A stretch of 13,346 nt of DNA. It comes from Candidatus Ozemobacteraceae bacterium. Lineage in GTDB: Bacteria; Muiribacteriota; Ozemobacteria; Ozemobacterales; Ozemobacteraceae. Under the pieces are notes generated by a model, which ran no database searches, was not told where the DNA came from, and worked only from the letters and a program-made list of their open reading frames with translations. The DNA lies in the NCBI GenBank assembly GCA_035342015.1, contig DAOQWI010000029.1:13092-26437 (forward strand), given 5' to 3'. Positions 8,698-13,346 of the stretch are shown here, piece after piece. Both the position numbers and the translations under genes were made by a program. Numbering within the stretch: position 1 is the first letter of the stretch; every line of letters starts with the position of its first letter.

Positions 8698-11600
8698 TTA
8701 TTGTGCTGGCAGGTGTTTTTTAAAGTTTTCGGCCTGCTCGAAAATCTCTTTGTAGACTTCGTCACGGTCTACCGGGGGGTAATCGTTTCTGGCCAGCAGA
8801 ATAATCAGATCGACCTTGAGTTCAGCTTTGATGTCGTCTCTTTTGCTCCAGTCTGTGTATTTTGCCTTGTCATCGACGACCTTTTTAACCTCTCTGGCCA
8901 GTGTCAGCAGCTTGTCTTCCGGGTAAACAAAGTCATATTTTACAGCCAGCGCCTTGAGAATGTCGTAAAAGGCTTTTTCTTCAAAGTTTATGCCTAGCTC
9001 GCCAAACGATTCTTTTTCCTTTTTCAGAGCCTGAAAGAGATCGATGATTTCATCGGTAAAATCTTCAAGCACGTTGCTGACGAGAATATCCTGCTCTTTT
9101 CGCTCGTTGTAGCGGTCTACCAGAGTTTTGAACTTTCTGGCAAAGTCGATTCCCTTGATTTTATTTACCTTTTTGAAAGCATCGATGGCCTTTGCCAGAA
9201 GCTGCTGCAACAGCTTTATTCGAGTATTCGGCAGTTTGATTTTTTCGATTCTGGCAAGGTAGTCATCAGAAAAAAGATCTACTTCAGCTGTCGAATTGTC
9301 GCCGGCTTTGAAAATCTCTTCAACACCGTCACTGTGCAGGGCCTCTTTGATCATTTCCCTGACACGGGCATTCATCTGAGCTATGTCGGGTGCGTTTCCT
9401 CTGGTCAGCTTGAAGACAATCGAACGGACTGCGATATAAAAGTGAATGAGATCTCTTTCGGCCTGGTTGAATTCATCGCTGCCGCAGCAGATGTCGTAAG
9501 CTGCTTTCAAGCGCTTAACCAGATACATAAAGCGCTTTTCAAGCTCATGGGTAAGCTGCACGAATTCGGCGGCCAGGTTCAAGCATTCAAGCTGCTGCAG
9601 CGGCGTGCCGGAAAAATATGCCGACTTGTTAAATTTGTGAAACAGCTTGTTTAAAAGGTCGAGATGGTCTTTGACCACAACGATTGACTGGTCGATTTCT
9701 TCAAAATTTGCAATATCGGTTTTTGAATAAAGCTTCAGAGCCTGGTTCATCTGGCGTTTGATGCCGATGTAATCGACGACCAGCCCTTTTTCTTTGCCCG
9801 CAAATGTGCGGTTAACCCGGGAGATTGTCTGAATCAGACTGTGCCGCTGAATCGGTTTGTCGATATAGATGGTATCAAGAAAGGGCACGTCGAAGCCGGT
9901 GAGCCACATATCGACAACAATGGCGATTTTGAAGTTCGACTTTTCGTTTTTGAACTGACGGTCAAGCTCTTTGCGAAAATCTTTGCTGCCGAGTATTTTA
10001 TAGAGCCCATCCGGGTCATCTTTGCTTCTGGTCATGACCATTTTTATCCGTTCCATCGGCTTGATTTCTTTACGCTCCCGGTCAGTTAAGGTAGCCCCCT
10101 CTTCGCAGACTTTCGATTCTGCCCATTCCGGCCGCCGATCGACAATCTTATTGTACAGGTCATAGGCTATCTGACGGCTTGAACAGACAAACATCGCCTT
10201 TCCCTTGACGGTTGCGCCTTCGTTAACCCTGTTTTCATAATGCTTCACAAAGTCGTCAGCAATCGCACTTATCCGTTCAGGGTCACCGAGAATGGCGTTC
10301 ATCTGAGCGTTTGCCCGCTTACTCTCTTCGATCTGATATTCTGAAGTGCCTTCCTCAGCGCATTTTTCGTAATATTTTTCAATTTCTTCCAGTTTGCTGC
10401 TGTCGAGAAAGACTTTGGCGGCGCGACCTTCATAAACGATGCGCACTGTAATTTCATCTTTTACCGATTCGTTCATGGTATAGGCATCAACGACCTCGCC
10501 AAAAACGTCGAGAGTCGCATCGATCGGGGTGCCGGTAAAGCCGACATAGGTTGCATTGGGTAATGAATCGTGCAGGTATTTGGCAAAGCCGAACGTGCGT
10601 TTGACGCCTTTATTGGTGATGCGGATCTTCTGTTCGAGATTGATCTGGCTGCGGTGCGCCTCGTCAGAAATGCAGATCACATTGCTTCTTTCGGTCAGAA
10701 GCTCGGTGTCTTCTGTGAATTTGTGAATGGTGGTCAGAAAAACGCCACCACTGTTACGGCCCTTCAATAGCTCGCGCAGATGCTGGCGGCTGTTGACACT
10801 GATGATGTTTTCGTCGCCGATGAAACCTTTGGCATTGGTGAACTGCTCCGAAATCTGGTCGTCAAGATCGGTTCTGTCGGTTATCAGCACTATGGTCGGA
10901 CTTGAAAAATCTATGCTCTTCATCAGCAGGCGACTGAGAAACAACATGGTAAAGCTTTTGCCACAACCGGTTGCCCCGAAATAGGTGCCGCCCCTGCCGT
11001 CGCCTGCCGGTCGCTGATGTTGTTTTATGTTGTGATACAGCTTGTTGGCGGCGTAATACTGCGGGTAACGGCAGACGATCTTTTCGTTTTTCTTCGATGC
11101 ATCCGGAAAGTAGATAAAATTGCGGATAATATCGCGCAACCGGCGCTGATTGAACATTCCCCCGATCATCGTGTAAAGAGAATCGACCCCGTCTTTTTCT
11201 GAATTCTCGCTGCCATTGATCTTGCGCCAGGCATAATAGAAATTGTAGGGCGCAAAAAACGAACCGGCCTTGTTGTTGACGCCATCGCTGATTACGCAAA
11301 AGGCATTGTATTTGAAGAGTTCGGGAATATCGCGGCGATAGCGTGTCGTCAGCTGAATGTATGCGTCGTGAATGGTTGTTTCTTCTCTGGTTGCGCTTTT
11401 GAATTCAAAGACAACCAGTGGCAGCCCGTTGATATAAAGAATTGCATCGGGAATGCGCTTTTCATAGCCGGTTATTTCGAGCTGATTCACTATTCTGAAT
11501 ATATTGCAGGTCGCATTGTATGGGGTAGCTTCTTCGGCGACAACCGTGTCGATTTCATCTGGCCGCGGCTGGCGGTGAGTTGCCAGGTCGCGGTAGTCGA

Positions 11601-11922
11601 TCAGCTGAATGTAAAGGTCTTTCTGACTGCGGTCTTCGCGTTTGAGCAGAAAACCGTCAGAAACCATTTTCATGATTGCCCGGTTACTTTCGTAAAGATC
11701 GCCGGTCGAATAGGTTTCGAGCCTGCGGATAATTGCGTCGATTTCGCCGGCGGTTATCTGAAACTGAGCGTATCTCTGCTGTAAAAAAGTGCGCAGATCG
11801 TCTTTGAGAATCACTTCTTCCGGTTTACGGGTAAGCTGCTGGCCGTATACATGCTCGTAGCCTTCTGCCTGCAGAAGTTCAATAATTGCCTGTTCAAGGC
11901 GTTCTTCGGTAAATTTACCCAT
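8698..11922 (-). CDS. hsdR: Type I restriction endonuclease R subunit (HsdR), 1074 aa.
   Basis: The N-terminus MGKFTEERLEQAIIELLQAEGYE is the typical HsdR_N. The helicase/ATPase core has Walker A GATGCGKSFT and DEAH box ISDEAHRSQ, plus helicase C-terminal motifs (QTISRVNR). A long C-terminal helical domain resembles the HsdR-family DUF3387-type C-terminus. The GGGAGA RBS and ATG overlap the stop of the upstream gene (ATGGGTAAA). Confidence 0.9.
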   Translation of the reverse strand: MGKFTEERLEQAIIELLQAEGYEHVYGQQLTRKPEEVILKDDLRTFLQQRYAQFQITAGEIDAIIRRLETYSTGDLYESNRAIMKMVSDGFLLKREDRSQKDLYIQLIDYRDLATHRQPRPDEIDTVVAEEATPYNATCNIFRIVNQLEITGYEKRIPDAILYINGLPLVVFEFKSATREETTIHDAYIQLTTRYRRDIPELFKYNAFCVISDGVNNKAGSFFAPYNFYYAWRKINGSENSEKDGVDSLYTMIGGMFNQRRLRDIIRNFIYFPDASKKNEKIVCRYPQYYAANKLYHNIKQHQRPAGDGRGGTYFGATGCGKSFTMLFLSRLLMKSIDFSSPTIVLITDRTDLDDQISEQFTNAKGFIGDENIISVNSRQHLRELLKGRNSGGVFLTTIHKFTEDTELLTERSNVICISDEAHRSQINLEQKIRITNKGVKRTFGFAKYLHDSLPNATYVGFTGTPIDATLDVFGEVVDAYTMNESVKDEITVRIVYEGRAAKVFLDSSKLEEIEKYYEKCAEEGTSEYQIEESKRANAQMNAILGDPERISAIADDFVKHYENRVNEGATVKGKAMFVCSSRQIAYDLYNKIVDRRPEWAESKVCEEGATLTDRERKEIKPMERIKMVMTRSKDDPDGLYKILGSKDFRKELDRQFKNEKSNFKIAIVVDMWLTGFDVPFLDTIYIDKPIQRHSLIQTISRVNRTFAGKEKGLVVDYIGIKRQMNQALKLYSKTDIANFEEIDQSIVVVKDHLDLLNKLFHKFNKSAYFSGTPLQQLECLNLAAEFVQLTHELEKRFMYLVKRLKAAYDICCGSDEFNQAERDLIHFYIAVRSIVFKLTRGNAPDIAQMNARVREMIKEALHSDGVEEIFKAGDNSTAEVDLFSDDYLARIEKIKLPNTRIKLLQQLLAKAIDAFKKVNKIKGIDFARKFKTLVDRYNERKEQDILVSNVLEDFTDEIIDLFQALKKEKESFGELGINFEEKAFYDILKALAVKYDFVYPEDKLLTLAREVKKVVDDKAKYTDWSKRDDIKAELKVDLIILLARNDYPPVDRDEVYKEIFEQAENFKKHLPAQ

Positions 11923-13336: not shown

Positions 13337-13346
13337 GTTGTCTCCT

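Follow-up and report, generated by a model that had tools for sequence, protein, structure and literature searches.

What a Schlafen-like protein does inside a type I restriction-modification (R-M) operon is the question raised by the right end of a 13,346-nt stretch of DNA from a Candidatus Ozemobacteraceae bacterium (assembly GCA_035342015.1, contig DAOQWI010000029.1, positions 13,092 to 26,437 of the forward strand), the whole of which is called the window below. This end is filled by two long open reading frames (ORFs) on the minus strand, the upstream one encoding a protein of 473 amino acids (aa), termed Schlatpase-HTH here, and the downstream one the restriction subunit HsdR. The balance of the evidence leans, if only slightly, towards the 473-aa protein being a portable, self-contained defence module, by analogy an ATP-gated Schlafen tRNase, which would occupy the cargo slot between hsdS and hsdR and be co-expressed with HsdR. 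The two genes and their control elements are arranged as follows.

11915..13336, minus strand: Schlatpase-HTH gene, 473 aa, with a Schlafen/AlbA_2 nuclease domain, a GHKL ATPase domain, a disordered linker and a C-terminal winged helix-turn-helix (wHTH)
8698..11922, minus strand: hsdR, full-length type I restriction subunit gene, 1074 aa, identified by motifs, Pfam, PADLOC and NCBIfam
11915..11922, minus strand: 8-nt gene overlap ATGGGTAA, holding the hsdR start codon and the Schlatpase stop codon, read from the ORFs and the junction sequence
11929..11934, minus strand: Shine-Dalgarno (SD) sequence of hsdR, GGGAGA, 6 nt before the hsdR ATG
13341..13346, minus strand: SD sequence of the Schlatpase gene, AGGAGA, 4 nt before the ATG of the 473-aa ORF, at the window edge

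At the junction the Schlatpase frame reads ...TGG GAG ATC ATC GAT GGG TAA and the hsdR frame ATG GGT AAA TTT. The Schlatpase stop codon TAA (11915-11917) lies inside codons 2 and 3 of hsdR, as had been reported in an earlier reading made from the letters of the window (the sequence-only reading), and the SD of hsdR is made by the Trp-Glu-Ile codons of the Schlatpase C-terminus. Because the last Schlatpase codons form the ribosome-binding site of hsdR and its start codon overlaps the Schlatpase stop, a single mRNA serves for both proteins, whose translation is probably coupled. The earlier reading had gone further in calling coupled translation forced; since hsdR has an SD of its own, coupling is permitted only. 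The SD that it had seen for the upstream gene at the window edge is the AGGAGA listed above, which is also found on L001 and on the two sister contigs described below (L087 and L088).

The 473-aa protein is assigned, on the strength of profile searches, to the Schlatpase-HTH family, that is the pSlfn HisKinase-HTH class, and its parts are distributed along the gene in the following way.

12980..13297, minus strand: SLFN_AlbA_2 domain, aa 14-119 (PF04326, 42.7 bits against a cut-off of 25.3, E 9e-11)
13274..13297, minus strand: codons of the Ex4ExK nuclease motif (E14-S-Q-L-V-E19-W-K21), with E14, E19 and K21 invariant in 71 homologues
12212..12544, minus strand: GHKL (Bergerat-fold) ATPase domain, aa ~265-375 (PF13749 HATPase_c_4 at aa 289-373, 70.4 bits against a cut-off of 26)
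12085..12132, minus strand: (SEKS)4 linker repeat, a perfect tandem of 12 nt x 4 (Tandem Repeats Finder score 96, 100% matches)
11924..12109, minus strand: C-terminal wHTH, aa ~410-471 (Pfam match at aa 415-457; model helices 410-453 and beta wing 457-470)

The same three domains, AlbA_2, GHKL ATPase and wHTH, had been recognised in the sequence-only reading, and searches with PF04326, PF13749 and HTH models all score above cut-off (for the wHTH, HTH_11 with 27.7 bits against 25 and HTH_24 with 26.6 bits against 21.9). The Ex4ExK motif has been defined as catalytic (PMC13056530). The 71 homologues aligned for motif conservation are 54-67% identical to the 473-aa protein, and the N-box (E273/N277/D283) and G2 box (G343/G345, in W342-G-R-G345) of the GHKL domain are likewise invariant among them. 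The catalytic motif set of the Schlafen domain and these two GHKL boxes are intact, and competence is predicted for them.

The AlphaFold2 model of the protein has a mean predicted local distance difference test (pLDDT) score of 90.5, with disorder limited to the N-terminal 11 residues and to the linker between ATPase and wHTH (residues 393-410, pLDDT <50), which contains the (SEKS)4 repeat. Homologues carry periodic K-[ST]-x-x linkers of varied length, and the repeat may be a site of linker-length variation. Foldseek matches were, best first, DIP2311 (3lmm, E 2e-24), the nuclease domains of SLFN12/11/14/5, the SAMD9 tRNase, wHTH domains and histidine-kinase catalytic cores. DIP2311, a structural genomics target of Corynebacterium diphtheriae, is also the best whole-chain match by phmmer (E 2e-7), at an identity of ~20%. 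For the wHTH, which is also described as being of MarR/AsnC/ArsR type, the matches were MarR-type and Z-alpha wHTH domains. The best-superposing of these are the Z-alpha (Z-DNA/Z-RNA binding) domains of PKZ and of herpesvirus ORF112 (TM ~0.8 on the target), a resemblance of models which may be generic wHTH similarity. The PADLOC model for pAgo matches residues 26-304. More than 7,600 relatives are present in the protein collection, under labels such as 'ATP-binding protein', 'ATP-dependent DNA helicase RecG' and 'putative DNA binding domain-containing protein', and no NCBIfam model was found for the Schlatpase or for the HTH_3, vault-like and YgjP-like proteins mentioned below.

The downstream gene had been read as a type I hsdR, and its domains, motifs and scores agree in describing a bona fide, motif-intact HsdR, a predicted restriction subunit. 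HSDR_N, SWI2_SNF2/ResIII, T1R_D3-like and T1RH-like_C domains are all over their Pfam gathering scores, the PADLOC model REase_I gives 1323 bits and TIGR00348 gives 478 bits (cut-off 285). The PD...ExK nuclease (D159, E173, K175), a Walker A motif (GATGCGKS) and a DEAH box (SDEAHRSQ) can be read in the translation. The protein is related to HsdR of EcoR124I (E 5e-26), and its C-terminal domain is HindI-like.

The window ends 10 nt upstream of the ATG of the 473-aa ORF and does not hold hsdM or hsdS, which the sequence-only reading had expected just outside it. Exact-protein look-ups returned just one 4.5-kb contig for the Schlatpase and none for HsdR and did not extend the window, whereas screening metagenome contigs for the opening 40 nt of the Schlatpase gene gave two, L087 (from activated sludge; 99.0% identical to window 4045-13346, 9.3 kb) and L088 (99.4% identical to window 11383-13346). 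On L088 the gene order is an enolase-superfamily gene, hsdM, hsdS, a 137-nt spacer (22.6% GC), the Schlatpase gene and hsdR, the two upstream R-M genes lying as follows.

914-2488 of L088: hsdM (N6_Mtase, 348 bits, and HsdM_N)
2466-3644 of L088: hsdS (Methylase_S, two stretches)

For this lineage the expectation is therefore confirmed, and the locus is read as a complete type I R-M system of the order hsdM-hsdS-[473-aa gene]-hsdR, of which the window holds the distal two-thirds. L087 starts within another hsdS allele, which is followed by a 112-nt spacer unrelated to the 137-nt spacer of L088. The HsdS alleles of L087 (1-772) and L088 (2466-3781) have 26 conserved central residues in common and differ in their distal halves. 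The point at which the two contigs diverge is exactly the window end, and is also the end of L001; probably, strain variation in the hsdS target-recognition domain and in the spacer broke the assemblies here. Scans of the hsdS-Schlatpase spacers for sigma-70 promoters and terminators were empty, and a search for an operator common to both spacer alleles found only the SD shared and no common palindrome (the hsdM promoter region was not examined).

The frequency of this arrangement was assessed in a scan of one genome per species, which yielded 80 loci with relatives at 45-68% identity, 71 of them assessable in having at least 1 kb of downstream sequence. The gene hsdR lies directly downstream in 20 of these 71 loci (28%), the other 51 being without it, which puts a number on the earlier statement that AlbA_2-HTH proteins recur in type I operons. 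The usual order is hsdM-hsdS-Schlatpase-hsdR-YgjP/SprT-like, and it is also present in metagenome contigs and in annotated Synechococcus and Arcobacter plasmids. When L002 and L003 are added to the 20 genome loci, 13 of the resulting 22 junctions show an ATGA/GTGA overlap of 4 nt, and at another two the genes are separated by at most 18 nt (15/22 within 18 nt). At the homologous junctions the conserved C-terminal ...G-G-H-W-E-V codons (TGG GAG GT) give GGGAGG before the hsdR ATG. The SD-forming codon GAG, as opposed to GAA, is used in 9/10 tight junctions against 11/22 loci without hsdR (one-sided Fisher p=0.034, in a small sample uncorrected for phylogeny and GC).

Several individual loci should also be noted. 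On an Arcobacter plasmid (L115, 302-12070) the order is hsdM-RhuM-hsdS-hypothetical-SLATT-DUF87-Schlatpase-hsdR-SprT, with the Schlatpase gene still abutting hsdR. On a Synechococcus elongatus plasmid (L114, 2557-4014) a Schlatpase variant lies in the hsdS/hsdR slot with overlaps of 4 nt and 1 nt. This variant and one from a Deinococcus radiophilus plasmid (H2) are 56-59% identical over residues 5-381 and have a different C-terminus, and both are named 'Fic family protein' in RefSeq; the wHTH module is exchangeable. Two tandem Schlatpase paralogues with a 4-nt overlap are present at another locus (L033, 69-2977), and L067 gives an extended double match. Relatives of up to 51% identity are encoded on 25 viral-classified IMG/VR contigs (L089-L113), several of them at contig ends, which suggests cargo at prophage borders or host flanks.

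Compared with the usual host operon, HsdR of the window lineage is only 24% and HsdM 29% identical, but the Schlatpases are 61% identical. The same cassette is therefore present in two type I lineages that are unrelated to each other, at the same position and joined to hsdR in the same manner. The window locus is without the YgjP-like gene, unlike most homologous operons. A second result points elsewhere. R-M-linked and unlinked Schlatpases are interspersed on the tree: one linked member (L011) is 86% identical to a protein whose gene adjoins a GmrSD type IV enzyme (L006), and another (L059) is 94% identical to an unlinked one (L046). The nearest neighbour is itself linked for 11 of the 23 linked members (permutation p~0.16), and a separate clade of type I-linked Schlatpases finds no support in the tree or in this test. 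The neighbours of unlinked genes include GmrSD, PLD-SNF2 helicase and Eco57I-type methylase genes, AAA_15/AAA_21 ATPases, RhuM and WYL/CRISPR genes. In three Verrucomicrobia genomes (L016, 6160-14620; L023, 1774-6527; L035, 6675-11545) a close Schlatpase homologue follows a PLD-SNF2 helicase, and in the first of these it stands between the helicase and an Eco57I/MmeI-type methylase, an embedding in a different ATP-dependent R-M-like system.

The hsdS/hsdR slot is promiscuous as well, and was also found to hold a Y1 transposase or SLATT, DUF87 and RhuM genes. It has been described as a hotspot with DarTG2 as cargo (PMC12255303) and houses PrrC in EcoprrI (PMC12707154; 10.1101/2024.01.29.577857), and the concept of defence genes embedded in other defence loci has been set out before (10.1101/2024.01.29.577857). 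The RRDM island of EPEC (RptR-hsdM-hsdS-DarTG2-hsdR-M48 peptidase; PMC12255303) likewise carries an accessory defence module in this slot, and most homologous Schlatpase operons share with it a SprT/YgjP/M48-like gene at their end. It differs in that its cargo is a DarTG toxin-antitoxin pair rather than a single Schlatpase gene, and the HsdR proteins of the two loci come from different type I lineages; the window locus is without an M48-like gene, and RptR was not seen on L088. The mixture of linked and unlinked relatives together with the promiscuity of the slot fits a portable, self-sufficient module which was repeatedly captured in a known cargo slot, while the quality of the hsdR junction and the reported HsdS fusions keep a functional link alive.

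The combination of SLFN_AlbA_2 with a GHKL domain (PF13749) has been named the Schlatpase supradomain (Kuzmenko et al., 2026, 10.64898/2026.05.29.728809), and the 473-aa protein has the same two Pfam domains in the same order, followed by a C-terminal HTH as in >90% of the family. In RzAgo, an SLFN-pAgo protein, binding of ATP to the GHKL domain leads to tetramerisation, by which the Schlafen nuclease is assembled, and to tRNA cleavage and abortive infection (10.64898/2026.05.29.728809). The 473-aa protein differs from RzAgo in having no Argonaute sensor, with the wHTH or the linker as putative sensor, and in its G1 box, which reads WNP. The same study reported stand-alone or HsdS-fused Schlatpases in type I operons of Poribacteria, whereas in the present case the host system is of type I and HindI-like. 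The pSlfn HisKinase-HTH class is the second most common one, with 19.2% of pSlfns, and makes up about half of bacterial Schlafens together with Slfn-HisKinase; 69.6% of pSlfn genes are within 10 kb of defence genes (PMC13056530). In RorSlfn5 the tRNase is set off by a fused Ig-like sensor that responds to a T5 tail chaperone (Perez Taboada et al., 2026, PMC13056530). The Ex4(E/D)xK motif, an N-terminal Slfn nuclease followed by C-terminal modules and the association with defence islands are common to RorSlfn5 and the 473-aa protein, while RorSlfn5 has the Ig-like sensor and no ATPase, and embedding in R-M systems was not analysed in that study. Related Schlafen proteins defend experimentally (PMC13056530; PMC13552941).

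By analogy with RzAgo and RorSlfn5, the 473-aa protein would be a latent, ATP-gated tRNA/RNA endonuclease. A phage cue would be sensed, tRNA would be cleaved and translation would be arrested, with the wHTH or the repeat linker as a sensing or tethering module. Comparative genomics suggests that the cassette would not be an obligate subunit of the restriction enzyme, and its co-expression with HsdR would place a second, RNA-targeting layer behind DNA restriction. A regulator, an anti-restriction sensor and an abortive-infection effector, the roles listed in the sequence-only reading, are still the right shortlist, among which the 2026 literature favours the effector.

A number of points weigh against a self-contained tRNase. 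The G1 box of the GHKL domain is atypical, with a conserved W302-N-P replacing NPG/DxGxG, where DIP2311 (3lmm) has the usual SPGG, and ATP binding is for this reason not assured. Several unlinked loci have ordinary, non-defence neighbours, and for ~30% of pSlfn genes no known defence gene lies in the vicinity (PMC13056530). When Slfn-HisKinase fusions were tested in E. coli they were not among the two systems that protected on the phage panel (PMC13056530), and the literature holds no Schlatpase-HTH protein with a demonstrated phenotype or trigger. The tRNA substrate, the oligomeric switch and the trigger are, all three, borrowed by analogy from proteins whose sensor modules differ. Finally, a purely autonomous passenger would not need so tight and recurrent a junction with hsdR.

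In a different explanation, the Schlatpase-HTH would be a 'restriction guardian' resembling PrrC, either held inactive by a working HsdM2S1R2 enzyme or monitoring HsdR. The RNase would fire once the enzyme has been disabled by an anti-restriction factor of a phage (DNA mimic or Stp-like peptide), and coupling would fix its stoichiometry to HsdR. PrrC of the EcoprrI type IC locus is likewise a latent tRNA-directed nuclease that has an NTPase domain; its gene lies between hsdS and hsdR, and it is expressed together with the restriction enzyme (PMC12707154; 10.1101/2024.01.29.577857), the activity of the Schlatpase being assigned by analogy. The shared slot, the 15 of 22 hsdR junctions within 18 nt (13 with the 4-nt overlap), the same position in two type I families with HsdR only 24% identical, the preference for the SD codon GAG (9/10 tight against 11/22 unlinked; one-sided p=0.034, phylogeny uncorrected) and the Schlatpase-HsdS fusion in Poribacteria (10.64898/2026.05.29.728809) would all fit such a role. 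That Slfn-HisKinase fusions tested alone were not reported as protective (PMC13056530) is what would be expected if a partner is needed. However, for 72% of close homologues the three nearest genes include none of type I, and pairs of 86-94% identity occur inside and outside R-M operons, whereas PrrC is almost exclusively R-M embedded (10.1101/2024.01.29.577857). The upstream junction in the window lineage is a variable spacer of 112-137 nt, and masking by the R-M enzyme with release by Stp has been demonstrated for PrrC only. Membership in the PrrC/RloC family itself was rejected: neither PADLOC nor Pfam gave a match to PrrC/RloC or an ABC ATPase, there is no sequence relation to PrrC or RloC, and the PrrC fold (ABC ATPase and ACNase) is unrelated to Schlafen and GHKL. 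A guardian of this kind is regarded as unlikely. A somewhat more elaborate version makes the Schlatpase-HTH a dedicated partner of HsdR, which selection would have placed directly before hsdR again and again, in two type I families or more, in both of which the Trp-Glu codons serve as the hsdR ribosome-binding site and would fix the protein ratio. As a Schlafen-type guardian it would detect HsdR that is inhibited or stalled, or, through its wHTH, DNA mimics with anti-restriction activity, and answer with tRNA cleavage. This proposal is doubted a little more strongly; if true, it would explain the absent phenotype of what is called the commonest class of bacterial Schlafens when tested outside its operon.

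Two further readings do without a guardian and are both considered quite improbable. According to one, the wHTH would bind operon DNA and tune or delay HsdR expression in the manner of a C protein, RptR or BrxR, the Schlafen and ATPase domains being sensors of a ligand or nucleic acid and not a toxin. It is in keeping with a C-terminal wHTH of MarR/AsnC/ArsR type and with a gene that is directly before hsdR and is translated first. The historical annotation of the family, 'predicted transcriptional regulator with Schlafen-like domain' (COG2865), is in line with it. Regulators do accompany type I systems (RptR, PMC12255303), but known R-M controllers are small DNA-binding proteins of 80-110 aa with an operator, encoded at the head of the operon (PMC12255303), whereas the Schlatpase, with its 473 aa, is a multi-enzyme protein. 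The spacers before the two 99%-identical alleles are unrelated, with only the SD in common and no palindrome, a pure regulator would not need the invariant catalytic residues of nuclease and ATPase, and members of the family abound in places without any R-M system to regulate. The other reading takes the gene for a neutral passenger, a mobile and possibly selfish cassette in a tolerant hsdS/hsdR slot, unrelated to restriction and possibly without a defence role, whose overlap with hsdR would be compaction after insertion. A slot that also holds a Y1 transposase, RhuM, SLATT, DUF87 and DarTG2, an R-M linkage without phylogenetic signal (p~0.16) and the housekeeping neighbours of some relatives could be accounted for in this way. 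Against it stand the strong purifying conservation of the catalytic motifs across phyla, the enrichment of defence genes in the neighbourhoods seen here and in PMC13056530 (69.6% within 10 kb), and the experimental defence by related Schlafens (PMC13056530; PMC13552941). The portable ATP-gated tRNase module, co-expressed with HsdR, stays the slightly favoured explanation.

The surroundings of the two genes were also considered. The sequence-only reading had described the whole right-hand block as AT-richer than the left half, and this holds for hsdR (47.3% GC, with 57% GC at third codon positions, GC3), for a small HTH_3 gene past it (47.0%/45.5%) and for the intergenic DNA at 7928-8697 (44.8% GC), but not for the Schlatpase gene (55.7%/61%), the left half being at 52-54% and the flanking genes at 52-56%/63-70%. 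On L088, hsdM is at 47.1%/59% and hsdS at 40.9%/40%. The contrast between the Schlatpase gene and hsdR is mostly at codon positions 1 and 2, their GC3 being alike, and clearly deviant composition is found only in hsdS (GC3 40%) and the spacer (23% GC). A single horizontally acquired AT-rich block was rejected, the Schlatpase gene resembling the left half in GC and hsdR in GC3. The composition is compatible with an acquired R-M island, weakly so, especially for the Schlatpase gene. Two features lie downstream of hsdR.

8585..8640, minus strand: terminator-like hairpins ~60-110 nt past the hsdR stop (weak evidence)
8023..8358, minus strand: small Xre-type HTH_3 gene, 111 aa (Pfam HTH_3, E 6e-5), also present on L087

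The hairpins, with one consensus terminator match (CGACATTTTTGTCG followed by a T-run, at 8603-8590) and a stem recognised by eye (TGTCGTCG...AGACGACA), are likely the end of the transcription unit; promoter and terminator scans over 7800-13346 gave matches at shuffle level. The HTH_3 gene lies 340 nt past hsdR, has its own SD and has a strong terminator in common with a convergent vault-like gene. Its low GC3 (45.5%) suggests that it came with the island, as an uncertain member. No Pfam domain matched any of the small ORFs that separate hsdR from the HTH_3 gene, and no remnant of a YgjP/SprT-like gene was seen there. The vault-like gene adjoining the R-M island (5381-7927, plus strand) encodes an 848-aa protein of an unusual bacterial type, in which the shoulder domain of the major vault protein (E 5e-30) is accompanied by a Vault_3 repeat and, weakly matched, by Band_7/SPFH, and which has no NCBIfam or PADLOC family; on L002, two Band_7 genes lie directly past the R-M operon. 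At the left edge of the window (1-105), upstream of the first ABC exporter gene, there is a perfect 50-nt tandem duplication (2.1 copies, 100% identity), which may be genuine or else an artefact of the assembly end. Neither Rfam nor tRNA searches of the window had any match, and megablast of 8698-13346 gave no match in E. coli genomes and only one weak 253-nt match among plasmids.

Earlier publications already cover the family, its Schlafen/GHKL/HTH architecture, the link to defence islands and its occurrence inside type I operons (PMC13056530; 10.64898/2026.05.29.728809), as well as the idea that defence genes can be embedded and the hsdS/hsdR hotspot (10.1101/2024.01.29.577857; PMC12255303). 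Modestly new are the quantified linkage (28% of close relatives), the use of Schlatpase codons as the hsdR SD at a conserved junction and the occurrence in a further type I lineage unrelated to the usual one. Taken by itself, the locus represents no new kind of system and is ordinary in kind, while being a useful test case. Together with its relatives it gives a concrete context for a Schlafen class making up about half of bacterial Schlafens (PMC13056530), and the native operon could tell an autonomous second-line tRNase from a Schlafen analogue of the PrrC guardian.

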